DNA of 64,000 nt, taken from NCBI GenBank assembly GCA_028865345.1, contig JAGWKL010000001.1:157489-221488 (forward strand). Reading direction: 5' to 3'. Shown here in pieces: positions 28,316 to 63,943 of this stretch (positions are counted from its first letter, which is position 1; each line of letters opens with the position of its first letter). The notes below the pieces were generated by a model that saw only the letters and a list, made by a program, of their open reading frames with translations, was not told the origin of the DNA and ran no database searches. Source of the stretch: Candidatus Omnitrophota bacterium. GTDB taxonomy: Bacteria > Omnitrophota > Gorgyraeia > Zapsychrales > Fredricksoniimonadaceae. The position numbers were made by a program, and so were the translations under genes.

Positions 28316-28317
28316 CG

Positions 28318-48629: not shown

Positions 48630-50722
48630 AAATGGTAGGTCGCGCGCTTCTTGAACTCCTCCTTCTTGCCCTTGTTCCATTGCTTGACCGGCCGCAAATA
48701 CCCCACAACACGGGAATAGACCTCACATTCGCAACCGCACGTCCCGCACTCCGGATGTTCCCCGGCCAGATAGCCGCAGCTCGGGCAGACACTGAAGGTG
48801 GGCGTGATGGTAAAGTACGGCAAACGGTATTGCTGGCAAATACAACGCACCAGGCTCTTTAACGCCGTCGCATCAATGATGCGCTCTCCCACAAAACCAT
48901 GCAATACCGTGCCGCCGGTATAAAGCGTTTGCAGGGCATCCTGATGGTCCAATGCCTCGAAAATATCGTCGGTATGCTCCACCGGCAAATGGGTGGAGTT
49001 GGAATAAAACGGCTCATGCCCCTGTGTATAACGCTCTTCGTTGGCGCAGATGATATCAGGAAACATCCCCTTGTCCAATTTCGCCAGACTGTAGGAGGTC
49101 CCTTCGGCCGGTGTGGCCTCCAAGTTATAAATATTACCCGTCTCCTTCTGGTAATCCAATAATTTGTTTCTCATGAATTCCAGCACGCGCACGGCGAAAT
49201 CTTTGCCCTGGGGGCCGGAGATATTCTGGCCCAACAAATTCAAGCAGGCCTCATTCATCCCCAAAAGACCGATGGTCGAAAAGTGGTTTTTCCAATACTG
49301 GTCAAAACGTTTCTTGATATTGCGCAGATAGAACTTGATATACGGATATAAATTCTCCTCGGTAAACTGCTCCAGCACCTTGCGCTTGATCTCCAGGCTT
49401 TGCCTGGCCAGGTCCATTTTCTCTGCCAGCATCGCTAAAAATTCAGTTTCGTCCTTTGCCAAGTACCCGAGACGCGGCAGGTTGATGGTGACGACTCCTA
49501 TGGAGCCGGTCAACGGTGAGGCCCCGAACAGCCCCCCGCCCCGGCTGCGCAGCTCGCGGTTGTCCAGACGCAGGCGGCAGCACATGCTGCGCGCGTCCTC
49601 GGGGCTCATATCGGAATTGATAAAATTCGAAAAATACGGAATACCGTATTTGGCCGTCATCTCCCAGAGCAGGCCCAGGTTGGGGTTGTCCCAGTCAAAA
49701 TCCTTGGTCATATTATACGTCGGGATGGGAAAGGTGAACACGCGGCCTTTGGCATCCCCGGCAAGCATTGCCTCAAGAAAAGCCTTATTGAACATGTCGA
49801 GCTCTTTTTGGAATTCACCGTAGGTCTCTTTTTGTACCTGGCCGCCGATGATGACGCCCTGATGGACGAAATAGCTGGGAACGGTCAAATCCATGGTGAT
49901 ATTGGTAAACGGCGTCTGGAAACCGACGCGGGTGGGCACATTGATATTGAATACGAATTCCTGCAGGACCTGCTTGACGCCTTCATAAGAAAGCCCATCG
50001 TAACGGATGAAGGGGGCCAAGAGCGTGTCAAAATTCGAAAAGGCCTGGGCGCCGGCGGCTTCCCCTTGCAACGTATAGAAAAAATTGATGATCTGCCCCA
50101 GTGCCGTGCGCAAATGCTTGGCCGGTTTGCTTTCCATTTTCCCTGAAACGCCCTTGAAGCCCTGGATCAACAGATCCTGCAAATCCCAACCCACGCAATA
50201 AACACTGAGCAGCCCCAGATCATGGATATGAAAATCGCCGTTTTGGTGCGCTTCCTTGACAGGAACAGGATAGATTTTGTTCAACCAGTAAATTTTGCTG
50301 ACCTCGGATGAGATATAGTGATTTAACCCCTGAAGGGAGTAGGCCATATTGCTGTTCTCATTGACGCGCCAGTCGTTCTGCCGCAGGTATTGGTCCACGA
50401 GGTCGGTGTTGAATTTTGAGGCGATGGCGCGCATCTCGGCATGCTGCTGGCGGTAAAGGATATAGGCCTTGGTGGTTTTGCGGTAGGGGGAAGAAATCAG
50501 GACATCCTCGACAATGTCCTGGATATTTTCCACCGTCGGACTCTCGGGGAACATCTGCTGGGCGATGTTGACCACCCTGACCGCGAGCTTTTGGGCGACT
50601 TCCAGATCAAATTCTCCGGTGGCCTGTCCGGCTTTGGCGATCGCCCGGACGATCTTCTGAGGGTCAAAATTTTCTGATTTCCCATTGCGTTTGACAATCG
50701 TGGTAAACAAGCTGACAGCCAT
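48620..50722 (-). CDS. nrdD: anaerobic ribonucleoside-triphosphate reductase (class III), glycyl-radical enzyme
   Basis: 700 aa. The N-terminal ATP-cone is MAVSLFTTIVKRNGKSENFDPQKIVRAI. The C-terminal Zn-ribbon is CPSCGY...CGTCGCEC. The glycyl-radical motif is SRVVGYLRPV. Confidence 0.9.
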   Translation of the reverse strand: MAVSLFTTIVKRNGKSENFDPQKIVRAIAKAGQATGEFDLEVAQKLAVRVVNIAQQMFPESPTVENIQDIVEDVLISSPYRKTTKAYILYRQQHAEMRAIASKFNTDLVDQYLRQNDWRVNENSNMAYSLQGLNHYISSEVSKIYWLNKIYPVPVKEAHQNGDFHIHDLGLLSVYCVGWDLQDLLIQGFKGVSGKMESKPAKHLRTALGQIINFFYTLQGEAAGAQAFSNFDTLLAPFIRYDGLSYEGVKQVLQEFVFNINVPTRVGFQTPFTNITMDLTVPSYFVHQGVIIGGQVQKETYGEFQKELDMFNKAFLEAMLAGDAKGRVFTFPIPTYNMTKDFDWDNPNLGLLWEMTAKYGIPYFSNFINSDMSPEDARSMCCRLRLDNRELRSRGGGLFGASPLTGSIGVVTINLPRLGYLAKDETEFLAMLAEKMDLARQSLEIKRKVLEQFTEENLYPYIKFYLRNIKKRFDQYWKNHFSTIGLLGMNEACLNLLGQNISGPQGKDFAVRVLEFMRNKLLDYQKETGNIYNLEATPAEGTSYSLAKLDKGMFPDIICANEERYTQGHEPFYSNSTHLPVEHTDDIFEALDHQDALQTLYTGGTVLHGFVGERIIDATALKSLVRCICQQYRLPYFTITPTFSVCPSCGYLAGEHPECGTCGCECEVYSRVVGYLRPVKQWNKGKKEEFKKRATYHLCA

Positions 50723-50774: not shown

Positions 50775-51008
50775 CTAAATCTCAAAAACTTCGTTTCCTT
50801 TGCATAATTCGTCTTCCACCAGTTTCTTGGCTTGCTGCCAGTCCTCCTGGTCATGCCCGTGCTGGCCGCCCCGATTCTCATAAAGCTCGTACGCCTTCTT
50901 TTCTATCATTTTGATGTAGGTCTCAAAATTGAGGATGGAACTTTTAGTCTGCGGCTTGGGCTTAACGCTCTCGATGGCTTTTTTGACTCTCTTGTCGATG
51001 ACCTTCAT
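50775..51008 (-). CDS. DUF2934-like small protein (77 aa)
   Basis: The C-terminal half IEKKAYELYENRGGQHGHDQEDWQQAKKLVE matches the DUF2934 signature as I recall it. An AAAAAGGAG SD lies upstream. It sits between the candidate NrdR boxes and nrdD. Confidence 0.45.
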   Translation of the reverse strand: MKVIDKRVKKAIESVKPKPQTKSSILNFETYIKMIEKKAYELYENRGGQHGHDQEDWQQAKKLVEDELCKGNEVFEI

Positions 51009-51120: not shown

Positions 51121-51140
51121 CTACGTAGAAAACTACGTAG
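51121..51140 (-). terminator. possible intrinsic terminator of the cytochrome operon
   Basis: Two copies of the self-complementary octamer CTACGTAG separated by AAAA, 3 nt after the TAA of the 19-haem gene. The transcript would form an 8-bp hairpin (CUACGUAG-UUUU-CUACGUAG) followed by UUGUACUGAUUU. Confidence 0.4.
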
Positions 51141-51143: not shown

Positions 51144-53933
51144 TTATTTGTACCCGAAGATCATGGTAAAAATAATGCACACGACCAAAACGAGCCCAAG
51201 GCTCAGGGCCGTCCAGCCGAAGATCCGGATGGCCAGAATTTTCCCCGGCGACAAAGGCTCTGCCAAATTCTTTTCGAGTTCGCCGCGGGCGACCAAGGCT
51301 TCATATTCCTTGGGCCGTTCGCGCTTTAAATCCTCGATGGACATGCGTCCGGTAAAGATCACCGTGTCCATAGGAAATTTCTCCGGCCTGAAATGGGTGT
51401 TGAAGAAATGCACCGTAAAAATAAACCCGGCAGCCAGCAAAGCCTCATCGCTGTGGACGATGGTGGCCACATTGATGACCCATCCGGGCAATACATGCGT
51501 GAAGGCTTCGGGAAACCAAAGCATCAATCCCGAGGTACCGATGACCATGACCCCCCAAAGCACGGCAAAATAATCAAATTTTTCCCAATATGTCCACCGC
51601 CCGTATTGCGGATATGGCCCTTTGCCCATGTACCATTTCACTGTGACTAAGAATTCACGCCAGTCTTTTTTTGTAAAAAGAATGGTATCGGGTCCGAAAA
51701 GCATCTCTTTGAAACTTCTTTTCTCAAGTCGTTTTTGGAGAAAGACCTGCCTCAAATGCGCAAAGAAGATGCCCAAAAGGGTCACCGCGGCACAACGGTG
51801 CAGGAACCCTGAAACCGCATAGCCGCCCAAAAGCTTCGAGATGAACAGCGCCCACGGCGTGTACGAAAATTTCAGCGTCATACCGGTGATCGTCAAGGTC
51901 AGGAAGCTGCAGATCATGATGATATGGAGGACCCGGTAAAATACAGGGAAACGCACATATTGTTTTTCCGTCGAGACAATATGTTTTTGAGGATAAAGCC
52001 TTCTCATTTCCAGGGATTTGGGCAGCCACAAAAGCGTATGGAAAAGGCTGACGCTGAATGTCCCCACCAGTAAAGCGGTCATGGCCCAAAAAGTCCAGAA
52101 TATCCAAGGGTATTTCTTGGGGTCATGGTGGGTGGCGTGGGTCAAATAACCGGCAAAACGCCTGTTGGCGCCCGCGTGGCACTTTTGACATGTATGGACG
52201 ATGTTCCAGTAACTCAAGGTCGATCGGGGATCTGTCACAGGAAAGATCTCATGGGACCCGTGGCAATCCTGGCATTTAGCGGCTTTCGCATACCCGAGTT
52301 TAGAAATTTTTCCATGCACAGTCTGGAAATAGGTCGAGGCGATCGCCTGATGGCATTTGCCGCACGTATTCATAATATCGAATCTAAAGGCGTTCTCGTC
52401 CGTCCTTTTAATGGTGTGCGCGGTATGACAATCATTGCAGGCAGGCAGTCGGGCCGAATCCTTGTGCCGGCCTATGGCATGGACGCTTTTCATGTACTTT
52501 TCATAAACGCCCTGATGGCATTGGGAGCAGGTCCTGGCAATGTTCCTGCGGTTCACGGTGGACCGCGGATCAGCGGCGGGCAGTTGTTCGTGGGCGGTGT
52601 GACAGCTGACACAGGTGGCGGCCACGACCAGCCCGCTTTCCAAAAGCCCCTGGCCATGGATGCTTTCAATGTAATTCGTGGTGATATTATGTTCCGGGCC
52701 TTTGTAAAGTACCGCCGCCTTATGACCTTCCCTGTGGCAGCGGGCGCAAAGAGCAGGGATATTGGTCGGATAGGTGGGCGACCTGATGTCCTTGTGGGAC
52801 AAAATTCCGTGGGTGCCGTGGCATACCCTGCACGACGGGGCATTAGGATTTCCCTGGCTCCATAATTTCCCGTGCGTCCCTCGCCGGTACGCCGCCACTT
52901 GTTGGCTGTGGCAGATGGAACAATCCACTCTTTTAGTGATCGTCTCACAGGGCCGGGTGTGGGAGGCAGAGACCTGGGTATGGCACTGGGCGCAGGCGAC
53001 CTTGGCATGGACTGAACCGTTGAATTGCTGTTCGTCGATGAAAAGCGACCGGTGGTCTTTGGAAGAGACGATTGTTTTCTTGCCGTGGCAGGTCAGGCAA
53101 TCTTGGTTGGCTTCTCCCATTGGATAATAGACCCGGCGTATCTTGTGGGGCTGGTGGCAATCCACGCACACAGGGATGACCTGCGGGTTCTTTTCCCATA
53201 ACTTGCCGTTGATGATCTTGCGATGGACACGCTCAATCTGGCTGTGGCATTGCAGGCAGGTCTTGACGATGTTGGCACGGGCAATGGACGAACGCGGGTC
53301 GGTGAAAGGAAGAATATCATGGGCCCGATGACAGGAGGCGCAGGTAGCGGTGACGTTGAGCCCTTTTTTAAGAAGAGCCTCCCCGTGCATGCTGTCGGAG
53401 TAATTTTCCAATATATGCTTCTCGGGGATCTGCCTTTGTTGCGAAACCGGCTTGCCCTCGCTATGGCAGGAACCGCAGACAAAAGGAATGTGAAACGGCG
53501 CCACCGTCGAATTTGGGTCTTTTACGGGAAGAATATAGTGGTTGCCGTGGCAATTGAAGCATTCCGGGGCCAGTTTGTCCCCGCGTGCCCGTGCCCGGCC
53601 GTGAATGCTGTCGGAAAACAGCGCCTCCTGCCGTGTGTGGCAGCGCCCGCAATCCACCAGGGCCACTGCCGTCTTATGCGGGAAATCACTGCCGACTAAA
53701 TCCGTATGACAATCCGTACAAAGTTGTTTGCCGTGAACAGACGCCTGGAATTTATCCTGGTCAACGAACGGCGCCTGGGTCGCATCTCCATGGCAGGCCA
53801 GACAATCGTCATTGGTCGCAGCGCTTTTGACGGCCGCAGGAGGACTTGCGGGGGCGCTCTGGGCATGAACGGTCCATGGTACGGTCAGCAGTACCAGTAT
53901 AAGAATAAAAGATTTTGGAATTCGGACGCCCAT
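51144..53933 (-). CDS. fusion of a periplasmic 19-haem cytochrome c domain with a C-terminal polytopic dihaem cytochrome-b-type membrane domain (CbcL-like architecture)
   Basis: The start is taken at MGVRIPKSFILILVLLTVPWTVHA, the signal-peptide Met at 53933; the ORF-track N-terminus overlaps the upstream gene. There are 19 CxxCH motifs, from CLACH to CQKCH. About 6 C-terminal TM helices carry intramembrane His (FHTLL, LHII, FLHRC, FAHL, IVHSD, TVHFF), as in HydC/FdnI/PhsC-type cytochrome b. Confidence 0.8.
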   Translation of the reverse strand: MGVRIPKSFILILVLLTVPWTVHAQSAPASPPAAVKSAATNDDCLACHGDATQAPFVDQDKFQASVHGKQLCTDCHTDLVGSDFPHKTAVALVDCGRCHTRQEALFSDSIHGRARARGDKLAPECFNCHGNHYILPVKDPNSTVAPFHIPFVCGSCHSEGKPVSQQRQIPEKHILENYSDSMHGEALLKKGLNVTATCASCHRAHDILPFTDPRSSIARANIVKTCLQCHSQIERVHRKIINGKLWEKNPQVIPVCVDCHQPHKIRRVYYPMGEANQDCLTCHGKKTIVSSKDHRSLFIDEQQFNGSVHAKVACAQCHTQVSASHTRPCETITKRVDCSICHSQQVAAYRRGTHGKLWSQGNPNAPSCRVCHGTHGILSHKDIRSPTYPTNIPALCARCHREGHKAAVLYKGPEHNITTNYIESIHGQGLLESGLVVAATCVSCHTAHEQLPAADPRSTVNRRNIARTCSQCHQGVYEKYMKSVHAIGRHKDSARLPACNDCHTAHTIKRTDENAFRFDIMNTCGKCHQAIASTYFQTVHGKISKLGYAKAAKCQDCHGSHEIFPVTDPRSTLSYWNIVHTCQKCHAGANRRFAGYLTHATHHDPKKYPWIFWTFWAMTALLVGTFSVSLFHTLLWLPKSLEMRRLYPQKHIVSTEKQYVRFPVFYRVLHIIMICSFLTLTITGMTLKFSYTPWALFISKLLGGYAVSGFLHRCAAVTLLGIFFAHLRQVFLQKRLEKRSFKEMLFGPDTILFTKKDWREFLVTVKWYMGKGPYPQYGRWTYWEKFDYFAVLWGVMVIGTSGLMLWFPEAFTHVLPGWVINVATIVHSDEALLAAGFIFTVHFFNTHFRPEKFPMDTVIFTGRMSIEDLKRERPKEYEALVARGELEKNLAEPLSPGKILAIRIFGWTALSLGLVLVVCIIFTMIFGYK

Positions 53934-53935
53934 AC

Positions 53936-55759
53936 CTAATCTCTGCTGCGGCCATGAAGCCACGACCAATTGCCCGGATAAACATCGGGATCGAAAATGA
54001 CGAAATATCCGTGCCAGATGATAATGGTGACACAGGCCAGAATGGCCTCGTACAAATGGACCGTCCTGACCACATCATAAAACCATTTGGGAAACATCCT
54101 TAAAAACCAAACTTCACTGAACATCAATACACCGGTCGCCACCATCACCAGGGAACCCCACAGCAGGGCCCAGTACTCTAATTTCTGCACATAACTATAA
54201 ACACCGTCGGGCTTTGGCTTGTCTTTACACCGGCCGAAATAATATTGGAAGCCCTGAAAAAGCTGTGTAAAATCCTCTTTTCTGATGCTTAAAGCTTTTA
54301 ACTGCCAGAGGCCTTTTTTCGTGAAAAACAAATAATAGAGGTGATAGAGTGCCAGGGCACAAAATACAAGGCCTGTGCCGCGATGCCCCCATCTCAACCA
54401 GTCATTGTGCCCGAAAAACATGAAGGACCACCAGGTTTGCGGGTACTTCAGGGAAAACCCGGTGTAGGCCAAAATGATAAAGGTCGCCGTTAAAATAAAA
54501 TGCTGACATCGTTCATTGAAACCCATGCACTCCCTGCCCTGCTGCAGAGAATGGCGGTAATGCGCCGCAGCTTTCTTGGAAAAATCAAGAACGTTATGCA
54601 ATAAGAGAATGCCCGAGACAAAAAAGATCAGGAAAACATAAAAGCACCGCACCCAATCGTTGACAGGATTGCCTCCGTTCTTAAGCCCCCCATGGACCAA
54701 ACCTTGCGCCACCCGCGCCCCGATGCCCGGGTGGCATTGACCGCAGGTCTTCTCCAGGTTCCTGGGGTTGATCGTCGAACGCGGATCCGATGACGGAAGG
54801 ATCTCATGCGCCCCGTGGCAGGACGCGCAATTGGCCGCGGTCAGCGTCCCCTGCTGCATCGCAAGACCGTGATAGCTTTGCATATAGCTACCCAATACAT
54901 TGCCGGGAAGGCCGTAGGCGGCATTGATGCGTTGGGCTGCATGGCATTGACCGCAGGTCTGCGGGATGTTCGCCGAGGAGACCATCGACGATGCCCTTTG
55001 GACCGCTTCGATGTTGTGCTCTCCATGGCAATCGGTACAGACAGGGGTGTCCCTGCTGCCCGCGGCCAATGCCTGCCCGTGGATTCCGCGAGCATACTGC
55101 TTGTATTCTTCCTTATGGCACTTACCGCAAGTCTCGGGGATATTGACCCAGTATAAGCGGGACAATCTATTGGCGGGCTTATTAATGTCGTGCGCCCCAT
55201 GGCAATCGCTGCACACGGCGGCCTTCATGTCCGTCCCTTTTTGAAACTCAAGCCCGTGAACGCTCTTCAAATAGGTCTTGCCTTCCTTGGTCAAAAGAGC
55301 GCTGTGTAGTTTCTGATGGCATCCCGAGCACGTGAGAGGGATGTTCTTGCGGTTGACCGGTGAACGAGGGTCATCGGCCTCTAATATCGCGTGAGGGTCC
55401 CCGTGGCAGGCCGTGCAGGAAGTCTCCGACGAAAAGACTGCGGCCATGCCCCTGGCATGGTCGCTGCGGCTAACGCCCAAGGCTTCTTTCTCATGACAAA
55501 CGGCGCAATCGACTTTTCGGAGTTTGTCAGCGTGAGGAAGCCCCTTGATGTCCTTATGGCAATCGATGCAGTCTAACGTTTGATGGACAGAATTGTTAAA
55601 GGCCTTTGGGTCAATAGCCGGGGCATTGTCCGCATGGCAGCTAAGGCAATCCTGGTTGGTCAGCTTAACTGGCGCTTGGGGAGCTTGCTGGGCCGTGGCA
55701 CAAACGCTCACCAGAACCGATAAAAAAAAGGTCCCTGAAAGACCTATGGTGTTTTTCAT
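53936..55759 (-). CDS. paralogous fusion of an 11-haem cytochrome c with a cytochrome-b-type membrane domain
   Basis: Signal peptide MKNTIGLSGTFFLSVLVSVCATAQQ; the start is taken there, and the ORF-track start at 55843 overlaps the upstream gene. There are 11 CxxCH motifs, then a C-terminal 5-6 TM domain homologous in pattern to that of the 19-haem protein (WVRCFYVFLIFFVSG..., His in TMs). Confidence 0.8.
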   Translation of the reverse strand: MKNTIGLSGTFFLSVLVSVCATAQQAPQAPVKLTNQDCLSCHADNAPAIDPKAFNNSVHQTLDCIDCHKDIKGLPHADKLRKVDCAVCHEKEALGVSRSDHARGMAAVFSSETSCTACHGDPHAILEADDPRSPVNRKNIPLTCSGCHQKLHSALLTKEGKTYLKSVHGLEFQKGTDMKAAVCSDCHGAHDINKPANRLSRLYWVNIPETCGKCHKEEYKQYARGIHGQALAAGSRDTPVCTDCHGEHNIEAVQRASSMVSSANIPQTCGQCHAAQRINAAYGLPGNVLGSYMQSYHGLAMQQGTLTAANCASCHGAHEILPSSDPRSTINPRNLEKTCGQCHPGIGARVAQGLVHGGLKNGGNPVNDWVRCFYVFLIFFVSGILLLHNVLDFSKKAAAHYRHSLQQGRECMGFNERCQHFILTATFIILAYTGFSLKYPQTWWSFMFFGHNDWLRWGHRGTGLVFCALALYHLYYLFFTKKGLWQLKALSIRKEDFTQLFQGFQYYFGRCKDKPKPDGVYSYVQKLEYWALLWGSLVMVATGVLMFSEVWFLRMFPKWFYDVVRTVHLYEAILACVTIIIWHGYFVIFDPDVYPGNWSWLHGRSRD

Positions 55760-55815
55760 CAAACCGCTAACCGTCATATGCGCCCGTAAATAATCCCAGA
55801 CGTATGCCGCCTGTT

Positions 55816-57324
55816 TCATCCCCCCGTATGACAGTCCGAGCAATTGGTCGTCTTCCAGGAATCGTCATCATAAAACGGATGCTGGAATTCCAGGCCGTTG
55901 ATGCTCTTTTGCACGGCGGTGCCGCTGCCCTGTTCGACGATGATATGGCAAAGAGTGCATTTGCGCTCAATGACTTTTCCATCGGCGGACTTATGCTCAT
56001 TGTCGTGGCACCGGAAACACCCCCGTGAAATCATGTGCCCGATGTTGTCCGGATAATCGTCCCAACGCGATTTCATTTCCGGAAAGAAATTTTGTTCGTA
56101 CAGCAGGGTGATTTCTTCAACAGCCTGCTCAACGGCAGGGCGGTTCTTGGTGTAATAAGCAAAGTACTTTTGTTTGTAATAGTCCGTTAATTTCGAACGG
56201 ATCTGCTTTTCGGCCTGACTTGTAGAATTATATTTATCGCCGAGAACTTCGACCCCCTCCGACTTTATCATGGGAATTGATGGACTGATCTTCCCCTGGG
56301 CCAGGGCCCGGTTCATCAAGACATCAGGCGCTTCAAAGCGGTGGGCGGCGCGGTTATGGCAATCGATGCAATCCATTCTCCTGATCTTGTCCTGAGGGGG
56401 ATTGACTTTTTTGTAAGGAGAGTTCTTGGACGTATAGATCGTGACCTTCCCCGATTTGTCCACCGTCTTGACCCAGCTGATATGCTGGCGTTTGGCGTCG
56501 TCGGCGACGTAGAAGATCTCATTATTGAAATACATGTGCGCGTGAATGCCGGCCTCGCCGTTTTTCCCGTTCCCGACACGCATCAACAGGTTGATTCTCC
56601 AAGGCGGGGTTTGGCTGGGATCATCCGCGTAATAAACCTTGTTGAGCAAAATGGCGCTGAAAGGCTTACCCGGCCAATGGCACTGTTCACAGATCTCCTT
56701 GGCCGGTCTCAAGGTGTTCAGGGGAGCCGGGGTCGGACGCTGATATCTGCCGTCAAAAGTCTTAACGAGCATTTTGGTCCCCGCCACTTTATAACGCAGG
56801 TACCAGTTGGCACCGGAACCCACATGGCACTCAACACACCTGACCCGTTCGTGGGGAGAATGGTTGTGCGTGTCATATTCGGGCTTCATGATCTGATGGC
56901 AGGTGAGCCCGCAAAATTGGGTCGATTCCGTATAATTAAAAGCCCTATAGGAACCGATGGCGGTCATGACCAGCAGGGTGACCGTGCCGATCATGAAGAT
57001 AACAACAGCGTTTTGGTGGGTCGCTAAAGAAAGATCGATGACGATGGGCTTGGGCTTTCCTTCTTTCGAGCCGCGCAAAAGCCGCCCGCGTTTCAAGGAG
57101 GCCCCTATCGGGATCAGTATAAGCCCGACAATGAGAAATGGCGGCAAGAAGACATAGGTGAGCAGCCCTAAATAAATGCTGGACTTAGGGGAAGCAAAAT
57201 CGATCGCGAACAAAAAGAGCTCGCAAAGAAGCACGAACAAAGACAGCCCCACACCGATATAGGTAATGTTGTTGTAAAAGCTATCGGAGAACCGCTGTTT
57301 CTTCTTTTTGAGCTCATTGTCCAT
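55816..57324 (-). CDS. inner-membrane multihaem cytochrome c with 3 N-terminal TM helices and 7 haem motifs (ImcH / NapC-NirT-CymA-like role)
   Basis: 502 aa with three hydrophobic helices in the first 130 aa. There are six CxxCH motifs (CVECH, CEQCH, CIDCH, CFRCH, CTLCH, CSDCH) and one CX3CH (FCGLTCH). Confidence 0.7.
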   Translation of the reverse strand: MDNELKKKKQRFSDSFYNNITYIGVGLSLFVLLCELFLFAIDFASPKSSIYLGLLTYVFLPPFLIVGLILIPIGASLKRGRLLRGSKEGKPKPIVIDLSLATHQNAVVIFMIGTVTLLVMTAIGSYRAFNYTESTQFCGLTCHQIMKPEYDTHNHSPHERVRCVECHVGSGANWYLRYKVAGTKMLVKTFDGRYQRPTPAPLNTLRPAKEICEQCHWPGKPFSAILLNKVYYADDPSQTPPWRINLLMRVGNGKNGEAGIHAHMYFNNEIFYVADDAKRQHISWVKTVDKSGKVTIYTSKNSPYKKVNPPQDKIRRMDCIDCHNRAAHRFEAPDVLMNRALAQGKISPSIPMIKSEGVEVLGDKYNSTSQAEKQIRSKLTDYYKQKYFAYYTKNRPAVEQAVEEITLLYEQNFFPEMKSRWDDYPDNIGHMISRGCFRCHDNEHKSADGKVIERKCTLCHIIVEQGSGTAVQKSINGLEFQHPFYDDDSWKTTNCSDCHTGG

Positions 57325-57329
57325 TCGCC

Positions 57330-59495
57330 CTACCAGTTAAAGCCTAATTTCATCAAAAAGATATTGGCTGAATAATTCCCCGACCCCACCGTGGGATTGT
57401 CCTTATAAGCCGCGTATTCATACTGGGGGCCTATTTTCAACCACTTGTGCCAGGTCCAGTCAAGGCTGGTAGTATAATTGAACATCTTAAAGTCAGACCC
57501 ATAAGGCACGCCTATGCCGGAATCGACATAATTGTTTGAGATCGTATAGGACGCGGTATTGGTCCAAACCCAATTCTCCGTTGGACTATACGTGGTCGAA
57601 AAAAGGAAGCTGTTGTCCCCTGAATTAAAATCGGGGATATAGGAAGGCCCGCCCTCGGCCGATGTCCCTGCCGAAGATGCCGCGATCGTCCTGACATAAT
57701 TTTCCACGTGCGAATACGAGAGCATCAATAAAAGCGTATCGATGGGCTGCAGCGTGATATCGTAGGTGAATGCTGATGTCAGCATATGATTTTCAGAGAT
57801 GTTATAATTCCCGTCTGCAGGGAGAGGATCTGAAGAACCGCCGGCCGATGGATCCAACTGAGGATTATAGACCGTATCGGAGAATTGGTATTTCAATGAG
57901 TTTTGCAGCCAGTGAAACGGTTTCCAGGTCAGTGTCGAAGTTTCGTCCACCCCTTTTTCCCTTAAGGAACTCATCAGAACAAGCCCGCTGGCAGAAGGAT
58001 TTGAAATTGTATCATATCCGCTGTACTGATCATGGACCCTGGCCTGGGTCGAAAAAATAATAAACCGGTTGGGATAAGTCCTGGCTCCCACGGTCCATGA
58101 TTCTTTCTGAGTTCTATTGAGCCTCTCCAAGTTAGAAAAAGTATTACTCGTTGAGCCCCCGGGAAGAGCAGTATAGGACTCATCGACCCAGTTCCTGTCC
58201 TGCTGCCATTCACCGTCCATATACACGCTGGTATGGGGAATGCCATAAAACCGCAGCCCCACATGCTCCCCGGTTTGGTCTTCACGGTTCTTCATACTGG
58301 CGTCATCTTCCCCTGTAGTACCAGCTGCATAATAGGCGGAATCACCCTCACTACCCTTATGCTCATATTTGACGTCGGTAAGAAAATCCACATTTTTCGT
58401 CAAATTGGAATTCAGGTTTCCCACCAAGACATGGTCATCTTCCGAAGCACTTGAATAATTCCATCCGGAGGTGCCAGACGTTACAGGGGTATAAACAACG
58501 CCGTCTGTAGATGAGAATTCCGCCTGCTGCATCAGGTCCGTGTCATGGATATGGTTATAATGGTATCCGACCGCGGCGTAGGTGTTGTCGTTGAGCATCC
58601 ATTTTTCCGCCCTCACCCCTGCGCCGAAGAGCTTGGCATTCGGGGATTCATTATATGTATTAAGTTGATTGGGGGTTGAAGTGGTGTCATTAAGATACTG
58701 CATATACTGGACATCATTATTGTAATCAAATTCCGCTTTTTGATCTGCCTTGATGGTCACTCCCGCGATCTTCTTCTTTTCTTTCAGGGTGATGGTGTCC
58801 ACATAACTATTTAACGACTCCCATGCAGGGCCGATTTTCCTTTCGGCGCCGGATGCGGTCTGTCCGGCCGCATAGACCGGGGTCCATTCTAAAAGCGACT
58901 TATCGCCGTTCTTGGTATTGTGCTCATAGGCTATGTCCAAATAAGGATCGCTGATCGGCCCTAAGCCTGCTTCCAATTTAAAATAACTGATGTCCATCTG
59001 TAAAGCAGGACTGTTAGCCTGGTACCCTTGATATTGAGAGGAAATTGAACCATAATTCGTATAACTGGCGGGAGGAGGATTACCGGCGGTGTTAGTAACG
59101 ACCTGGTTCGGATAAAACCCGCCTGTCCCATCATACCATTTTCTAAAGGCGTTATAGTCTACCCGCAAAAAGCCCACGTCCCCGTCCTGCAGGACCAAAT
59201 GGCCGGTGCCCGTGTCGGTCCCCGGGAATGCACTGCCTTGCACTTCCAAGGATATATTCTTATTAATATCTTTAACAAATGAGATATTGCTTATTCCTCC
59301 ATTGTTGTCCGTATTGGCCTGCATCCAGTTAAGGGCTTCGAACTTGCCCACATTGCCCTTGACGCTGGCATATTGTACCGGTTCAAGAGTGATGCTAAAA
59401 GGCGTGGTATCCGCATCCTGGGCCAATGCCAGATATCCCACCTGCGTCATGTACGCTGCCACCATGATTGAGAGTAAAATACGAAAGATTTTCAT
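57330..59495 (-). CDS. large outer-membrane beta-barrel protein (MtrB/MtoB/PioB-like porin of a porin-cytochrome conduit)
   Basis: 721 aa with signal peptide MKIFRILLSIMVAAYMTQVGYLALAQ. It is rich in Gly/Thr/Asn/Tyr with alternating amphipathic strands. The C-terminal ...LMKLGFNW ends in an aromatic residue. It is flanked by multihaem cytochromes. Confidence 0.6.
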   Translation of the reverse strand: MKIFRILLSIMVAAYMTQVGYLALAQDADTTPFSITLEPVQYASVKGNVGKFEALNWMQANTDNNGGISNISFVKDINKNISLEVQGSAFPGTDTGTGHLVLQDGDVGFLRVDYNAFRKWYDGTGGFYPNQVVTNTAGNPPPASYTNYGSISSQYQGYQANSPALQMDISYFKLEAGLGPISDPYLDIAYEHNTKNGDKSLLEWTPVYAAGQTASGAERKIGPAWESLNSYVDTITLKEKKKIAGVTIKADQKAEFDYNNDVQYMQYLNDTTSTPNQLNTYNESPNAKLFGAGVRAEKWMLNDNTYAAVGYHYNHIHDTDLMQQAEFSSTDGVVYTPVTSGTSGWNYSSASEDDHVLVGNLNSNLTKNVDFLTDVKYEHKGSEGDSAYYAAGTTGEDDASMKNREDQTGEHVGLRFYGIPHTSVYMDGEWQQDRNWVDESYTALPGGSTSNTFSNLERLNRTQKESWTVGARTYPNRFIIFSTQARVHDQYSGYDTISNPSASGLVLMSSLREKGVDETSTLTWKPFHWLQNSLKYQFSDTVYNPQLDPSAGGSSDPLPADGNYNISENHMLTSAFTYDITLQPIDTLLLMLSYSHVENYVRTIAASSAGTSAEGGPSYIPDFNSGDNSFLFSTTYSPTENWVWTNTASYTISNNYVDSGIGVPYGSDFKMFNYTTSLDWTWHKWLKIGPQYEYAAYKDNPTVGSGNYSANIFLMKLGFNW

Positions 59496-59515
59496 GTCTT
59501 GTTCCTCTCTCTAAG

Positions 59516-60298
59516 TTAATAACGAAAATAATGATCAAAATTAGACCCATGAGGCGCAGAATGACAACCCGCGCTCCAGCATGTTCCATAAACAAAATCA
59601 TTATAAATATGCTGAGCACTGGTACCGTTCTGGCCATGGCCATAAGGGAAATTATTCATGGCATGGCAGCGTAAACACAGGTTATAATCCCGCGCGATCA
59701 GCATTTTGTCATTAACCGACCCGTGCACCTGGTGGCAGGACGTACAACCGTCCTTCATGGCATCATGCTCCCAGATATACGGCCCTCGTTTGTCGCTGTG
59801 GCATTTGAAACAGACATCGTTAACACCGTTCTCTGACGTAGCCGTCCAGGGACGGACATCTATCCCATGGGCGTCGTGGCAGTCGGTGCAGCTCATCTTA
59901 CCTTCCAGGACAGGATGATGGTAAGGCAGACGGAATTGCATCTTTTTATCGGTATGGCAGGTAAAACAGACCTCCGGATCATTTTTGGGGTTGATGATAT
60001 TGTTCGTCCCTCCCGAGGCATCCACGTGGATACTGCCCGGACCATGGCAGGTCTCGCAATCCTGGGCGCCGGTGGTTTCGTTCTTGATATGGAGACGCCC
60101 ATGCGTCGAAAGCTTGTATTCACGGCCTTCTTTTTCATGACATGTCACGCAGGTATCCATGCCCACATACGTGGCTTTCTTCAAATACAACATCTCGTTG
60201 ACCTTGTTCTGATCCGCCCGGGCAACTGAAATTCCCCCGGCCCAAAACAATCCCATTGCCAGCCCCAAGAGAACCATCCACGATTTTTGACCGATCAT
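59516..60298 (-). CDS. periplasmic 8-haem cytochrome c (MtrA/MtoA/PioA-like)
   Basis: 260 aa with signal peptide. There are seven CxxCH motifs (CVTCH, CETCH, CFTCH, CTDCH, CFKCH, CTSCH, CLRCH) plus one CX4CH (CWSAGCH). The haem density is about one per 30 aa. Confidence 0.8.
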   Translation of the reverse strand: MIGQKSWMVLLGLAMGLFWAGGISVARADQNKVNEMLYLKKATYVGMDTCVTCHEKEGREYKLSTHGRLHIKNETTGAQDCETCHGPGSIHVDASGGTNNIINPKNDPEVCFTCHTDKKMQFRLPYHHPVLEGKMSCTDCHDAHGIDVRPWTATSENGVNDVCFKCHSDKRGPYIWEHDAMKDGCTSCHQVHGSVNDKMLIARDYNLCLRCHAMNNFPYGHGQNGTSAQHIYNDFVYGTCWSAGCHSAPHGSNFDHYFRY

Positions 60299-60362
60299 AA
60301 GATGCCTTTCTGTTTATCCGTAAGATACTTGCCTTCCCTAAAAATAAGGTTTACACCTGTCC

Positions 60363-60632
60363 TTACTTCTTAATCGGCCCCACTTGTTTATACGTATCAG
60401 CGGTTGGCTTCTGAGCACCTGCCGCTTTGATGACGGCCTTGCCATAATCATTGGGATCATGCTGGCCGTCCGCTTTTTTAGGCATTCTATCCACGTGACA
60501 ATCGATGCACTTGGGCCTTGAATCAGGATAGGCTGCCTTGTAGGCCTTGATCTGCGCAAAATCAGCCCTGGCTGCCGCGCTCCAAAGGACCAGGCCAAAA
60601 GTGAAGCTTAAAACGACCGCTGTTTTCATCAT
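60363..60632 (-). CDS. small periplasmic monohaem cytochrome c (MtoD-like position)
   Basis: Signal peptide MMKTAVVLSFTFGLVLWSAAARA and a single CIDCH. The start is uncertain; the ORF track extends to 60662, which would overlap the hemA stop by 4 nt. Confidence 0.55.
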   Translation of the reverse strand: MMKTAVVLSFTFGLVLWSAAARADFAQIKAYKAAYPDSRPKCIDCHVDRMPKKADGQHDPNDYGKAVIKAAGAQKPTADTYKQVGPIKK

Positions 60633-60658
60633 AGTTCTCATAAGCTCCTCCTTAATGT

Positions 60659-61702
60659 TCACATCTGAGACATTTGATTTATCAAAGAAACCTTTTCCAG
60701 GGCCCCGAAGAATTCACCAATTTTCTGGGCGATCATTTCTTCGACCGTTCCCACCGCCGACAGGCGCTTTCGGGTGTTGCCTTCGACGATCCTGTCCAAA
60801 TCATCCACGGTCACAAGCGTGACATTTGTCATACCGCCCACCTCGGGAGCGACATTGCGGGGCATGGAAATGTCGATCAATACCAACGGCCGCGCTGTCC
60901 TTGTTTTCATGACCGTATCAACCAGGTCACGTTCGATCAAATGGTGAGTGCAGCTGGCCGAGCAAATGCACACATCCGCCTGGGACAAAACTTCCCTCAT
61001 TTCCCAAAAGCCAACGGCTGTACCGCCGCTTTCACGGGCCAGTTCCTGGGCATTTTCCATTGTCCTGTTCATGATATAAATGTCGGCGACACCCTTTTTA
61101 GCCAATTGCTCAACCGCCAGACGTCCCATTTTTCCCGAACCCACGATCAACACGGTCTTGCCTTGCAGCGTGCCCAGGACATTTTGCGCCATCACGACCG
61201 ACGCCCAGCTTACCGATGAGCCGCCGAAATCGATGGACGTCTCATGGCGCGCTTTCTTGCCGGTCTGCACAACAAGATTGGAAAGGATATTGAAAGTTTT
61301 GCCCATCATGCCGTGCGCGCGTGAAAATTCAAACGCTTCCTTGACCTGCCCCAGGATCTGTTTTTCCCCGATGATCAGGGAATCCAGGCCCGTGGTCACG
61401 CGCAACAAATGCTCCACGGCTTGACTGCCGGTGAAGGTATAGAAATGGCCCGTTAAATCTGCCTGCGGAGGGATTTTCTTGATCTTAAAAATTGCATCAA
61501 TGAGCGCTTGAGGCCGGCCCTCAATGCTGTTAGCGTAAATCTCCGTTCGATTACAGGTCGATAAAACAAACGCTTCCGCAATGCGGGGATCATTTTGAAG
61601 CTCGCTTAAAAGCAATTCGCGCTCGATGGGCTGCAGGTAAAATTTCTCTCTGACATCTATTGAGGAAGTTTTATGATTTATACCGACGGCCAGAATATTC
61701 AT
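60659..61702 (-). CDS. hemA: glutamyl-tRNA reductase
   Basis: 347 aa with the catalytic-Cys motif VLSTCNRTEIY, a Rossmann NADPH domain (VLIVGSGKMGRLA) and a C-terminal dimerisation helix. Its start overlaps the stop of the receiver gene (ATGA). Confidence 0.9.
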   Translation of the reverse strand: MNILAVGINHKTSSIDVREKFYLQPIERELLLSELQNDPRIAEAFVLSTCNRTEIYANSIEGRPQALIDAIFKIKKIPPQADLTGHFYTFTGSQAVEHLLRVTTGLDSLIIGEKQILGQVKEAFEFSRAHGMMGKTFNILSNLVVQTGKKARHETSIDFGGSSVSWASVVMAQNVLGTLQGKTVLIVGSGKMGRLAVEQLAKKGVADIYIMNRTMENAQELARESGGTAVGFWEMREVLSQADVCICSASCTHHLIERDLVDTVMKTRTARPLVLIDISMPRNVAPEVGGMTNVTLVTVDDLDRIVEGNTRKRLSAVGTVEEMIAQKIGEFFGALEKVSLINQMSQM

Positions 61703-62079
61703 AGGTTGCCTTTGGGCGACAAAAGACGGTTGATCGTCGGAACAAGGCGGCGATCCAGGTCGCTTTTGTCGATAAAATCCTCCACATCCTTATGCCTTCC
61801 TAAGTCCTTCATGTCCTGCTTGGCATACATGGTCAAAATAATGATGCCGCAGGAATCATCCTGGCGTTTGATAAGGGAGGCCAGCTCCAGGCCGCTGATG
61901 CCCCTCGTTAAATGGATATCGATAATCACAACCTTAGGACGCCGCCTCAGGGCGATATCAATGCCCTCCTGGCCTGTCACGGCTTCCAAAATGTCCGCTT
62001 TGACGCCTTTCATAAGGATGAATCTCTTCATCGCTTCCCGGAACTCTTTGTGATCTTCGACGATCAATATGTTCTCCAT
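61699..62079 (-). CDS. stand-alone CheY-like response-regulator receiver protein
   Basis: 126 aa. The REC fold begins MENILIVEDH, with the phospho-acceptor Asp in VVIIDIHL and the conserved T/K. Confidence 0.85.
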   Translation of the reverse strand: MENILIVEDHKEFREAMKRFILMKGVKADILEAVTGQEGIDIALRRRPKVVIIDIHLTRGISGLELASLIKRQDDSCGIIILTMYAKQDMKDLGRHKDVEDFIDKSDLDRRLVPTINRLLSPKGNL

Positions 62080-62183
62080 AAATTTCTCATCGTTAAGGCA
62101 CGCTTCGCACTAATTAGAAGATACAGGAAGAGGGAAGGAATGAAAATTCGGTGAACTACTTAAGGAGGTACGTAGTATCACTT

Positions 62184-62234: not shown

Positions 62235-62879
62235 CTAAATCAACCCTTTGGCAATAGCGTATTTGACAAGGCCGGCGGCAGTCTTAATGCCCAGCTTGTG
62301 GATCAGCCGGCTGCGGTGGGTCTCAACGGTGCGGATGCTGATTTTTAATGAGGAGGCGATGTTCTTATTGGCGGCCCCCTTGACGATCATGGCCAGGACC
62401 TGCTTCTCACGGTTGGTCAATATCTGCAGGGAAGGGACATCGCCTCCTTCAATGGAACGCACATACTGCTCGGTGATGTATTCGGAAATCGCCGGTGAAA
62501 CAAAATTCTTGCCCTTCATAACAAGTTTAATGGCCATCACCAGCTGATCAAAAGCGCCGTCTTTGAGAATGTAGCCGCTGGCGCCGTGGGCCATCGCATA
62601 TTTGAAATGGTCGATGTCTTTTTGCATGGTCAATATCAGGACCTTTAATTTGGGATACCTTTGGCGCAATTCTTTGAGCGTCTCCAGGCCGTCCATTTGA
62701 GGCATGGACAGGTCCAATACCACACAATCGGTTCTGGCGGTTTTCAGCTTTTCCAGAAGGACTTCGCCGTTACCCGCCTCAGCCACCACTTTAAAGTCCT
62801 GGCTTTTGTCCAATAAACCCCTTAAACCCGCACGCAACATGGCATGGTCATCGGCGAGGATCACCCGGATTGCGCTCAT
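62235..62879 (-). CDS. NarL/FixJ-family response regulator (REC + LuxR-type HTH)
   Basis: 214 aa. The REC domain is RVILADDHAMLRAGL...DCVVLDLSMP. The LuxR HTH is LTNREKQVLAMIVKGAANKNIASSLKISIRTVETHRSRLIHKLG. Confidence 0.9.
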   Translation of the reverse strand: MSAIRVILADDHAMLRAGLRGLLDKSQDFKVVAEAGNGEVLLEKLKTARTDCVVLDLSMPQMDGLETLKELRQRYPKLKVLILTMQKDIDHFKYAMAHGASGYILKDGAFDQLVMAIKLVMKGKNFVSPAISEYITEQYVRSIEGGDVPSLQILTNREKQVLAMIVKGAANKNIASSLKISIRTVETHRSRLIHKLGIKTAAGLVKYAIAKGLI

Positions 62880-63943
62880 ATCTTCGTTCCCTTCACTGGA
62901 ATGTTAATAAGGATATCCGTCCCTTTTTTCAATGTCGACTGCAACTCTATGCGACCGCCTAAAAGCATGACCCTTTCCTTCATAGTCACCAGGCCCAGGC
63001 CCGTGGACCGGGAAGTCGCCACAAACCCTTTGCCGTTGTCGGAAATGCGGATCTTCAACTGGTCTTTGGCCACACGGACATCGACTCTGACGAGGCTTGC
63101 GGCGGCATGCTTGATGATATTGCCCATGGCCTCCTGGATGATACGGTATATATTAATGGCTTCGGCGTTAAACTTCAAGCTATCGATCTTATTGTGACGG
63201 AACTCTATCTCCAGGGACTTGGAGCGGTTGATTTCGTTGAACATCAATCTCAAGGCGGTGGTGAGTCCAAGCGTATCCAGCGTTGATGGCCTCATGCGCA
63301 TGGCCAGGTTGCGGGACTTTTCAATGATGCTGCCCAAATAGGCTATGATCTTCTCATGCTCTTTGCGCTCCTGGGAATTTCTTTTGGGATCCGGCAACCA
63401 TGCCGACTGGATCAGGATCTTCAAGGTGGCCAGCGATTGCCCCAGATCGTCATGGATGTCCCGCGCGATGCGGTTGGCTTCGCTCTCCTGCGCCTGGATG
63501 ATGCGCTGGGGGATGGCCTTGATCTCCTCTTCCATCAATTTGCGCGGGGTTATTTCCGTGCGGATGGAAACGTATTGGAACGGCTTGCCTTTATTGTTAA
63601 GAAAGGGAACGATGGTCGTATCCACCCAATAAATCGAGCCGTCCTTGGCCTTGTTGCGGATCTCGCCTTGCCACACCTTGCCATGGGCGATCGTACGCCA
63701 CAAGTCCCGAAAAAATTCCTTAGAATGGTAACCGGAATTGATGATCCGGTGGTCCCGGCCTAAAAGCTCTTGGCGGGTATACTTGGAAATCTCGCAAAAT
63801 TTATCATTGGCGTAGACGATCTTGCCGGTCTGGTCGGTAATGGCCACGATCGATGACACATCCAGGGCAAACTTAATATCCGTCAGTTCCTTGAGGGTCT
63901 TCTCGAGGGCGTATCTTTGGTAAAACGAACCGGGTATTGGCAT
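62876..63943 (-). CDS. cytoplasmic PAS-domain sensor histidine kinase (HisKA_3 / NarX-DegS type)
   Basis: 355 aa. An N-terminal PAS domain (SIVAITDQTGKIVYANDKFCEISKYTRQELLGRDHRII) is followed by a HisKA_3 H-box IARDIHDDLGQSL and HATPase_c motifs (ISDNGKGF, GLGLVTMKER). Its stop overlaps the LuxR-RR start. Confidence 0.85.
   Translation of the reverse strand: MPIPGSFYQRYALEKTLKELTDIKFALDVSSIVAITDQTGKIVYANDKFCEISKYTRQELLGRDHRIINSGYHSKEFFRDLWRTIAHGKVWQGEIRNKAKDGSIYWVDTTIVPFLNNKGKPFQYVSIRTEITPRKLMEEEIKAIPQRIIQAQESEANRIARDIHDDLGQSLATLKILIQSAWLPDPKRNSQERKEHEKIIAYLGSIIEKSRNLAMRMRPSTLDTLGLTTALRLMFNEINRSKSLEIEFRHNKIDSLKFNAEAINIYRIIQEAMGNIIKHAAASLVRVDVRVAKDQLKIRISDNGKGFVATSRSTGLGLVTMKERVMLLGGRIELQSTLKKGTDILINIPVKGTKI

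Follow-up and report, generated by a model that had tools for sequence, protein, structure and literature searches.

This study concerns a compact group of cytochrome genes in the genome of a Candidatus Omnitrophota bacterium, and the question it raises is whether their products form a route for electrons across the outer membrane and, if so, in which direction the electrons would run. The DNA analysed, hereafter the window, is a 64,000-nt stretch (assembly GCA_028865345.1, contig JAGWKL010000001.1, positions 157,489 to 221,488 of the forward strand). On the minus strand between positions 62079 and 51144 lie eight genes encoding, in order of transcription, a receiver protein, a glutamyl-tRNA reductase (HemA), a monohaem cytochrome c, an 8-haem periplasmic cytochrome (c8), a large outer-membrane beta-barrel, an ImcH-type inner-membrane cytochrome, and two CbcL-type fusions of a multihaem cytochrome c with a cytochrome b (cbc11 and cbc19). 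We consider it probable, though well short of certain, that they specify a two-component outer-membrane conduit in the style of MtoAB and PioAB, which is fed by several quinol oxidoreductases and serves extracellular electron transfer (EET), with outward flow favoured.

A preliminary description of this DNA had listed these eight linked genes with their products, counted 46 haem-binding motifs in five of the proteins, placed the upstream boundary of the operon ahead of the receiver gene, and noted that the quinol-side module appeared expanded. All of this agreed with the results given below. The open reading frames (ORFs) were all present: the receiver gene, which is the first of the operon (61699–62079, 126 aa), hemA (60659–61702, 347 aa), the monohaem gene (60363–60662, 99 aa with a GTG start or 92 aa with the ATG at 60641), the c8 gene (59516–60298, 260 aa), the barrel gene (57330–59495, 721 aa), imcH (55816–57324, 502 aa), cbc11 (53936–55843, 635 aa), and cbc19 (51144–53969, 941 aa). 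Recounting the haem motifs gave 1 + 8 + 7 + 11 + 19, that is, one CXXCH in the monohaem protein, seven CXXCH and one CX4CH in c8, one CX3CH and six CXXCH in the ImcH-like protein, and 11 and 19 CXXCH in cbc11 and cbc19, respectively. Apart from these five, no ORF of 50 aa or more in the entire window contained a CXXCH; the clustering of haem motifs is therefore not due to chance.

The junctions between the genes are narrow. The receiver gene and hemA overlap by ATGA (-4 nt), and hemA and the monohaem gene are spaced by -4 nt with the GTG start or by 17 nt with the ATG start. Gaps of 64 nt (monohaem/c8), 20 nt (c8/barrel), and 5 nt (barrel/imcH) follow; imcH and cbc11 either overlap by ATGA or lie 38 nt apart, according to which start is taken, and the cbc11/cbc19 gap is 2 nt with the gene caller's start from a 99.3%-identical genome. 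Two such 99.3%-identical metagenome-assembled genomes (MAGs), GCA_028866185.1 and GCA_028870875.1, were available, and locus L025 shares 11.1 kb with the window. Their gene calls gave 92 aa for the monohaem protein, 613 aa for cbc11 (L025), and 929 aa for cbc19. The ATG at 60641, situated behind AAGGAGG, is the more likely start of the monohaem gene, and the true starts of cbc11 and cbc19 are probably at 55819 or 55777 and at 53933, respectively. From the gene spacing we infer co-transcription as a single transcript. Its upstream boundary fits a terminator-like hairpin at 62217–62194 on the minus strand (10-bp stem with 5 G-C pairs, followed by TTCTCTTTTT), which stands between an upstream LuxR-type regulator gene and the receiver gene. 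N-termini resembling Sec-type signal peptides, as read from hydropathy and AXA sites only, were present in the monohaem protein, c8, the barrel, cbc11, and cbc19. The possibility that the locus is a foreign island was rejected, since it carries no compositional sign of one (G+C of 0.48–0.55, as in the rest of the window) and its flanks are syntenic in relatives.

The pair expected to cross the outer membrane consists of c8 and the barrel. The c8 protein is an MtrA homologue (6R2Q chain A, E = 2.5e-34), with residues 101–254 aligning with residues 173–325 in the C-terminal part of MtrA, six haem motifs included; the alignment suggests that two central MtrA haems are missing from c8. Only a weak, sub-threshold match to NetB was seen. 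In 21 of 26 loci, which come from three phyla and include Verrucomicrobiales and Syntrophales, the c8 gene directly precedes the barrel gene. Among the best 120 homologues of c8, which were inspected for Opitutus terrae and other named Verrucomicrobia, most were metagenome proteins and the few named ones were from Verrucomicrobiota.

The barrel, which is 100% identical to a hypothetical protein of a Candidatus Omnitrophica MAG, yielded a confident AlphaFold model, of which the best match among solved structures was MtrB, with 85% of MtrB aligned. About 26–28 strands were found, as many as are expected for an MtrB-like porin and enough for a lumen that could take up a multihaem cytochrome; the C-terminus is aromatic (…GFNW). 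Membership of the MtrB/PioB family at the sequence level was rejected, as neither PF11854 nor TIGR03509 was matched; the link to MtrB is one of fold. PF11854 (MtrB_PioB) was weakly matched by 4 of 65 distant barrel relatives (best E = 4.3e-6). The barrel may belong to an unrecognised sister lineage of MtrB/PioB spread across the Planctomycetes-Verrucomicrobia-Chlamydiae (PVC) superphylum, of which the members fused to a monohaem domain may represent a second, independent 'Cyc2-like' invention.

Such fusions were observed in 20 of the 65 sampled distant relatives; these proteins are approximately 800 aa long, and in them an MtrB-sized barrel follows a monohaem domain, PSCyt1 ('Planctomycete cytochrome C'), at the N-terminus. 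Examples are P0264, P0292, P0296, and L024:8001-10418 from a Verrucomicrobiales MAG (JAQGOY010000195.1), the last of which has a c8 homologue on one side and, on the other, a 747-aa protein containing a cupredoxin (Copper-bind) domain and a Big_7 domain. The PSCyt1-barrel fusion resembles a large-barrel counterpart of Cyc2, and no description of it was found. Cyc2 itself, the fused cytochrome-porin of Fe(II) oxidisers, has a much smaller barrel. The likeness to Cyc2 thus concerns some distant relatives; it does not extend to the barrel of the window, which is unfused, and the fused relatives differ from Cyc2 in their size of about 800 aa, their MtrB-sized barrel, and their continued pairing with an 8-haem cytochrome.

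On the inner-membrane side, the product of imcH has three transmembrane (TM) helices, with hydropathy peaks at residues 23–41, 53–71, and 106–124, a CX3CH motif at 138 next to the third helix, and CXXCH motifs at 163, 212, 319, 436, 456, and 495. This is exactly the published architecture of ImcH, which is defined by three TM helices, a NapC/NirT-like region, CX3CH by TM3, six CXXCH, and a length of 495–519 aa (Levar 2014; Zhong & Shi 2018). In the published Omnitrophica homologues the motifs are at 135, 159, 208, 317, 434, 454, and 494 (Zhong & Shi 2018). The NapC/NirT region (residues 106–194) scored 35.6 bits against PF03264 (cut-off 24.1), and NrfH (2J7A_C) was matched at E = 3.4e-4. Among the best 120 of 6932 homologues, most were metagenome proteins, and those with a name were without exception from Omnitrophota; one homologue cluster, with a 99%-identical representative, includes a protein of a Candidatus Omnitrophica MAG. 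The published Omnitrophica accessions (OGX39360 etc.) were absent from the homologue clusters examined.

The two fusions encoded downstream have the CbcL/MtrH/MtoC architecture, in which a periplasmic multihaem domain is joined to a cytochrome b of the HydC/FdnI type (HydC/FdnI-like and dihaem in cbc11); this family combines an N-terminal multihaem c domain of 3–23 motifs with a cytochrome b. The cbc11 product scored 55.1 bits against PF01292, above the cut-off of 30.1, and the cbc19 product 29.7 bits, marginally below it; both matched TIGR01583, a formate-dehydrogenase gamma-like family. A simple hydropathy scan displayed 6 C-terminal TM helices in cbc19 and 5 in cbc11, as compared with the 6 that characterise the CbcL family. 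The haem intervals of cbc19 (28, 23, 30, 28, 45, 28, 30, 23, 35, 24, 30, 28, 45, 28, 30, 25, 30, 28) nearly equal those of listed 19-haem CbcL homologues, e.g. that of Caldithrix (920 aa).

Between the two membranes, the monohaem protein has one CXXCH and only two histidines in its whole length. In 20 homologues the CXXCH was kept and, besides the histidine of the haem motif, the single other one was invariant; a methionine following the CXXCH was not conserved. Because one further histidine is invariant and the methionine is not, bis-histidine (bis-His) ligation of the haem is suggested and, as judged from these alignments, probable. No Pfam or NCBIfam family was matched, and the best PDB match had E = 0.16, with none to a class I cytochrome. 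Identity with MtoD was rejected, as the protein does not detectably resemble MtoD or any other solved cytochrome, and so was homology with the PSCyt1 domain of the distant barrels (at most 8 bits). A functional analogy with MtoD is possible. Clusters in relatives contain from 1 to 3 copies of the monohaem gene.

A scan for barrel homologues, with one genome per species, gave 23 loci, nearly all from Omnitrophota MAGs and one from Syntrophales, and most of groundwater, lake, or soil origin. Around 15 related genomes have the core order PAS kinase-LuxR regulator followed by receiver-hemA-monohaem-c8-barrel-X-imcH, where the monohaem gene is present in 1–2 copies and X is a variable slot, and this order was kept even at 27–28% barrel identity (L012, L013, and L017). 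The slot was filled by different quinol-oxidoreductase modules. In the window, L002, and L010 it is the CbcL-type pair, which is placed after imcH. According to Pfam, L001, L004, and L007 have a 4-haem membrane cytochrome, an NrfC-like 4Fe-4S protein, and NrfD between the barrel gene and imcH, and L005, L018, L017, and L023 have a 9-haem cytochrome, a Rieske protein, and a cytochrome b. The swapped-in modules were mapped to L001:12137-14617, L005:12253-15143, L018:9425-12308, and L007:12099-15194. It was also observed that relatives with swapped modules often contain an extra monohaem or c554-like tetrahaem cytochrome.

As ImcH and the outer-membrane pair stay the same while the quinol-oxidoreductase modules next to them change, this pair appears to be wired to the quinone pool, and module swapping provides the best comparative evidence for such a coupling. 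The view that the quinol side is expanded in the window was confirmed and is strengthened by the other quinol-oxidoreductase modules that relatives have in the same position.

In the proposed route, electrons from the quinol pool would enter three inner-membrane quinol:cytochrome c oxidoreductases, one of the ImcH type and two of the CbcL type, which, as in Geobacter, probably each serve a different range of redox potentials. The shuttle in the periplasm would be the small monohaem cytochrome with its probable bis-His ligation, and c8, in complex with the MtrB-like barrel and threaded inside its approximately 26 strands, would carry electrons over the outer membrane. Since the operon encodes no extracellular cytochrome, the reaction with soluble or colloidal acceptors, of which Fe(III) complexes, humic quinones, and fine mineral particles are candidates, would fall to the outermost haem itself, as in two-component modules like MtoAB and PioAB.

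Several observations favour outward flow. ImcH is required for the reduction of high-potential acceptors in Geobacter, where imcH is monocistronic (Levar 2014), and all its occurrences known to date are in Fe(III) reducers (Zhong & Shi 2018). ImcH together with CbcL is the Geobacter pairing, and a similar, probably homologous module of Verrucomicrobia has been proposed to reduce humics. The conserved neighbours are anaerobic: nrdDG, encoding anaerobic ribonucleotide reductase, lies directly downstream of the cluster (47955–50722) and flanks the locus on either side in L002, L004, L007, L010, L012, and L013, with nrdD only in L001. The sole nearby oxidase, of the bd type (cydAB, approximately 5 kb upstream in a 99.3%-identical genome), draws on quinol, not on cytochrome c.

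Other points weigh against the conduit model as a whole or against its outward direction. CbcL/MtoC homologues occur in both reducers and oxidisers (Zhong & Shi 2018). Assignment to ImcH is based on architecture, an identical motif layout, and a list in the literature, and is to be taken as a sequence-based prediction. The c8 protein has 8 haems (seven CXXCH plus the C-terminal CX4CH), not 10, and scored 163.6 bits against TIGR03508 (DmsE family), under the cut-off of 192.2. The barrel matched no Pfam or NCBIfam family at E ≤ 0.01, PF11854 and TIGR03509 included, and a profile of its family did not recover 6R2Q_B from the sequences of solved structures. No surface multihaem cytochrome was found in the operon or the window, nor beside the barrel in any Omnitrophota locus; among characterised systems, this is typical of the Fe(II)-oxidising PioAB and MtoAB. 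The gene order also resembles that of the Fe(II)-oxidising Mto system.

The likeness to Mto and Pio, which the preliminary description had extended to the whole synteny, was borne out in part. The organisation and the MtrA/MtrB-like pair were found as claimed; the monohaem protein is unlike MtoD by sequence, and the inner-membrane partner is ImcH rather than CymA. As in MtoAB of Sideroxydans and PioAB of Rhodopseudomonas, and in MtrAB of Shewanella taken without MtrC, the gene for an MtrA homologue is directly upstream of a large barrel gene; as in MtoAB/PioAB, there is no dedicated surface cytochrome, and a small monohaem protein and an inner-membrane multihaem quinol oxidoreductase are encoded in the cluster. 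The locus differs from MtoAB/PioAB in having 8 haems instead of 10, a barrel that is not MtrB/PioB by sequence, ImcH and two CbcL-type proteins in place of CymA, and hemA and a receiver gene within the operon.

This partial likeness is the basis of the alternative that survives best, namely the same conduit working inward. The c8-barrel pair would then oxidise extracellular Fe(II), reduced humics, another cell, or a mineral, as in Mto/Pio-style lithotrophy or electron uptake; the monohaem protein would carry electrons inward like MtoD, and the CbcL-type and ImcH proteins would reduce quinone, or electrons would reach an oxidase. In its favour, the two-component outer-membrane module lacks a surface cytochrome, and the order monohaem, MtrA-like cytochrome, barrel, inner-membrane cytochrome parallels mtoD-mtoA-mtoB-cymA, the gene order of Mto. 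The monohaem protein, however, has no detectable similarity to MtoD or any other solved cytochrome. CbcL/MtoC homologues are present in Fe(II) oxidisers, but ImcH is so far restricted to metal reducers. A Rieske/cytochrome b module, as found in some relatives, could support reverse electron flow, and a cytochrome bd oxidase is encoded nearby; bd, however, takes electrons from quinol, so that electrons from Fe(II), at circumneutral potential, would have to be driven uphill onto quinone, and no downhill branch is visible. No cbb3 or aa3 oxidase and no carbon-fixation gene was found in the 74 kb examined (the window plus approximately 10 kb beyond its edge in the 99.3%-identical genomes). Inward flow is regarded as rather unlikely.

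A further alternative retains the pair and adds a partner: c8 and the barrel would wire an unidentified surface enzyme or partner protein encoded elsewhere, a cupredoxin-type protein being one candidate. MtrAB-type modules are known to serve surface reductases, as DmsEF does for dimethyl sulphoxide reductase, and in L024 the homologous pair is followed by the 747-aa protein with Copper-bind and Big_7 domains. Some homologous Verrucomicrobia clusters encode extracellular multihaem cytochromes (He et al. 2017, PMC5615132). No such gene stands beside the barrel in any Omnitrophota locus or in the window, and we hold this alternative to be improbable. Iron handling instead of energy conservation, with reduction or oxidation of extracellular or periplasmic iron feeding uptake and magnetite biomineralisation in magnetotactic Omnitrophota, is brought to mind by 4 of the 23 loci (L005, L006, L007, and L009, from isolates nDJH6bin18, nDJH13bin20, nDJH2bin18, and nDJH2bin13), which are from a MAG series named as in a genome data set of magnetotactic bacteria, but it appears very improbable, as this share may be a sampling bias with most loci coming from ordinary groundwater, lake, or soil MAGs, no magnetosome-family domain was found among the scanned window ORFs of at least 150 aa outside the locus, and three quinol oxidoreductases with 46 haems would be a large outlay for assimilatory iron reduction.

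The outward, quinol-fed conduit can also be compared with other known systems. The closest precedent in the PVC superphylum is that of Verrucomicrobia, in which a porin of at least 20 strands adjoins a periplasmic cytochrome with eight conserved haem sites and EET to humic substances was proposed (He et al. 2017, mSphere, PMC5615132); the locus described here has the same type of 8-haem/porin pair. In L024 (Verrucomicrobiales) the c8 homologue has 38.5% identity, the same seven CXXCH and one CX4CH, and an adjoining barrel homologue. L024 differs in the N-terminal PSCyt1 domain of its barrel and in lacking hemA, ImcH, and CbcL. Judged from these L024 homologues, not from the genes of He et al. 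themselves, the Omnitrophota and Verrucomicrobia pairs are probably the same PVC-wide module.

The inner-membrane proteins have the domain architectures of Geobacter sulfurreducens ImcH (GSU3259) and CbcL (GSU0274), and both types occur in one organism in either case. This locus is different from Geobacter in that imcH starts 5 nt after the barrel gene and the CbcL-type proteins have 11 and 19 haems rather than 9. It is also different from the Pcc (OmbB-OmaB-OmcB) and Ext systems of Geobacter, as no outer-surface lipoprotein multihaem cytochrome is encoded beside the porin. The NrfBCD-type quinol dehydrogenases that feed Mtr in Aeromonas and Vibrio (NetBCD) have a counterpart in the module of L001, L004, and L007; this is absent from the window, which has the CbcL-type pair downstream of imcH instead.

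The two genes at the head of the operon bear on how such a conduit would be supplied with haem and regulated. HemA scored 346.8 bits against TIGR01035 (cut-off 209.55), has GlutR_N and Shikimate_DH domains, and contains the catalytic-cysteine/active-site motif STCNRTE. Its matches stop early, at model position 341 of 416 for TIGR01035 (starting from 1) and at residue 325 of 404 for PDB 1GPJ of M. kandleri (E = 1.9e-51, starting from 4); the C-terminal dimerisation domain is therefore missing. As 12 of 14 cluster-linked copies in relatives are similarly short (approximately 348–359 aa, with longer ORF calls in L003, 459 aa, and L017, 398 aa), the short form is characteristic of the lineage and does not result from artefactual truncation. 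Of the first 23 loci, 14 have hemA linked to the cluster, and these extend to loci with barrel identities of only 27–28%. Two short hemA genes are present within 12 kb in L005 (7511–8563 and 19378–20436), one in the cluster and the other adjoining ATP-synthase-like genes, so that some genomes, at least, may carry the cluster-linked hemA as an additional paralogue. No other hem gene was found in the window. In a combined literature search on glutamyl-tRNA reductase with porin-cytochrome or EET systems, the enzyme's name was absent from the top-ranked papers.

Genes for cytochrome c maturation are also near. Beyond window position 64000, the corresponding region (L025:2534-9970) has a radical SAM gene (228 aa), ccsA, resB, a lipoprotein-like gene (254 aa), cydBA, and a second stand-alone receiver gene; ccsA and resB are System II cytochrome c maturation genes. 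The resB-ccsA-radical SAM block was found upstream of the cluster in six further relatives besides the 99.3%-identical genomes. The radical SAM gene was considered as a haem-pathway enzyme and rejected, having only generic, sub-threshold radical-SAM matches. With hemA inside the cluster and the resB-ccsA block upstream, haem-precursor synthesis, cytochrome c maturation, and the apocytochromes are genetically linked. Each protein set needs at least 46 haems, and co-expression of hemA, whose product catalyses the first committed step of haem synthesis, would meet this demand.

The receiver is CheY-like and stands alone, with PF00072 as its sole match (63.1 bits) and no output domain. Its phosphorylation set is intact (acidic pocket E8/D9, phospho-acceptor D54, T83, and K105), and the gene was kept in 9 loci. 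Directly upstream of the operon, on the minus strand, are genes for a PAS sensor histidine kinase (62876–63943; Pfam PAS_9, HisKA_3, and HATPase_c) and a NarL/LuxR-type response regulator (62235–62879; Response_reg and GerE, a helix-turn-helix domain), which probably have their own transcript. The kinase-regulator pair was retained directly upstream of the cluster in L001–L004, L007, L010, L012, and L013.

Between the regulator and receiver genes, approximately 75–100 nt upstream of the receiver start codon, an operator-like motif, GTGATACTACGTA-N5-CTTAAGTAGTT, was found at 62154–62181 (minus strand), which forms an imperfect inverted repeat, TACTAC…GTAGT. The consensus block CGTGrTACTACGTA-N5-yTTAAGTAGT was shared by the window and 7 relatives, despite receiver identities of 42–74%, and was situated 14–26 nt past the regulator stop codon in 7 loci and approximately 100 nt past it in L001. 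The 7-mer CTACGTA occurred at only three places in the window, all flanking the operon, namely one in this block and two in tandem at 51121–51140 (5 strand-counted matches vs 1.14 expected). Right after the cbc19 stop codon, tandem palindromes, CTACGTAG-TTTT-CTACGTAG (51121–51140), have the same core as the upstream motif; they are possibly a second operator or a weak terminator before a 77-aa ORF and nrdDG. In L001 and L002, equivalent copies occupy the gap that separates nrdD from the final gene of the cluster. Further copies of the motif in relatives were almost exclusively intergenic, ahead of hemA, imcH, cbc11, nrdD, and the kinase gene. A scan for sigma-70 promoters was uninformative (18 sites vs 13.7 expected).

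The TACTACGTA/CTACGTAG-containing motif, which was seen ahead of the operon and in further intergenic parts of the locus in the window and in L001–L004, L007, L010, L012, and L013, is a plausible candidate operator for the adjacent NarL/LuxR-type regulator, and its position ahead of nrdD hints at a small regulon that includes nrdDG. The PAS kinase and the NarL-type regulator would probably set expression via the conserved TACTACGTA-containing site, with the stand-alone receiver as a second phosphoryl acceptor. A wider reading can be tentatively put forward, in which the locus is a self-contained, jointly regulated unit for making and using cytochromes: a redox-sensing PAS kinase and the NarL-type regulator, acting via the TACTACGTA site, would turn on a dedicated short HemA, CcsBA, and the entire conduit from quinol to cell surface at the same time, and the barrel would represent a PVC-wide lineage. 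It is possible, though clearly less likely than the outward conduit itself.

Several features next to the operon and elsewhere in the window were recorded. The 77-aa ORF between cbc19 and nrdD (50775–51008, minus strand; MKVIDKRVKK…EDWQQAKKLVEDEL…) lies directly downstream of the tandem CTACGTAG palindromes, and the annotated nrdG ORF overlaps the 3′ end of nrdD by 61 nt (48620–48680). Near the start of the window, after a gene with helix-turn-helix and PTS-EIIA domains, NuoH/L/K-like subunits are encoded at 943–4483 (Oxidored_q2, NADHdh, and Proton_antipo_M; module 943–5181), which are part of a complex I, Mrp, or hydrogenase-type module running off the window. Four ORFs had no Pfam family: 7661–9331 (556 aa), 13400–14542 (380 aa), 20514–21152 (212 aa), and 28166–28912 (248 aa). 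The first two are embedded in a glycogen cluster with a GH57 branching enzyme, GH13, a glycogen synthase-like glycosyltransferase, and DUF4912. A 935-aa PAS-PAS-GGDEF-EAL protein for cyclic-di-GMP turnover is encoded at 21966–24773, adjoining genes for a MarR-type regulator and a TolC/HlyD/ABC-2 export system (16271–20359). The rest of the window includes glycogen metabolism, ABC transporters, aromatic amino-acid synthesis, ruvAC, lepA, RNase P RNA, and tRNA-Val.

Each component of the locus is of a known type, and the novelty is in the arrangement and the host phylum. Parts were already known in Omnitrophica and Verrucomicrobia, so the finding is less novel than first thought: three ImcH and three CbcL homologues were listed in Candidatus Omnitrophica (Zhong & Shi 2018), 'metal-reducing cytochromes' were reported by FeGenie in 10 of 23 Omnitrophia species, with the locus not described (Seymour et al. 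2023), and further divergent porin-cytochrome clusters are known in Verrucomicrobiota and Acidobacteriota (2026 preprint). In the 2018 survey, no mtrAB or mtoAB was next to any imcH (Zhong & Shi 2018); the physical linkage of imcH to an MtrAB-like pair is a case which that survey did not find. Also new are hemA embedded in the cluster, with ccsBA nearby, under a conserved two-component system and an operator-like motif; the interchangeable inner-membrane modules, a natural swap experiment with three quinol-oxidoreductase modules in one slot; and a large family of unannotated barrels that have an MtrB-like fold and in some cases are fused to a monohaem cytochrome domain.

The hemA/ccsBA linkage ties haem supply genetically to one specific cytochrome pathway, and the compact 8-haem/barrel pair offers a testable minimal trans-outer-membrane wire. 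The phylum Omnitrophota, which has no cultured member although it is widespread in groundwater, lakes, and sediments, is often regarded as consisting of ultra-small cells that depend on a host. A conserved, complete, and apparently co-regulated EET route would give part of this phylum a respiratory niche, either in Fe(III) or humic reduction or in electron exchange with minerals or partner cells, and the conduit would suggest electron acceptors for enrichment cultures. If the wider reading is true, the self-contained unit would give these mostly tiny-celled, uncultured bacteria a metal-respiring, humic-respiring, or electron-exchanging lifestyle.

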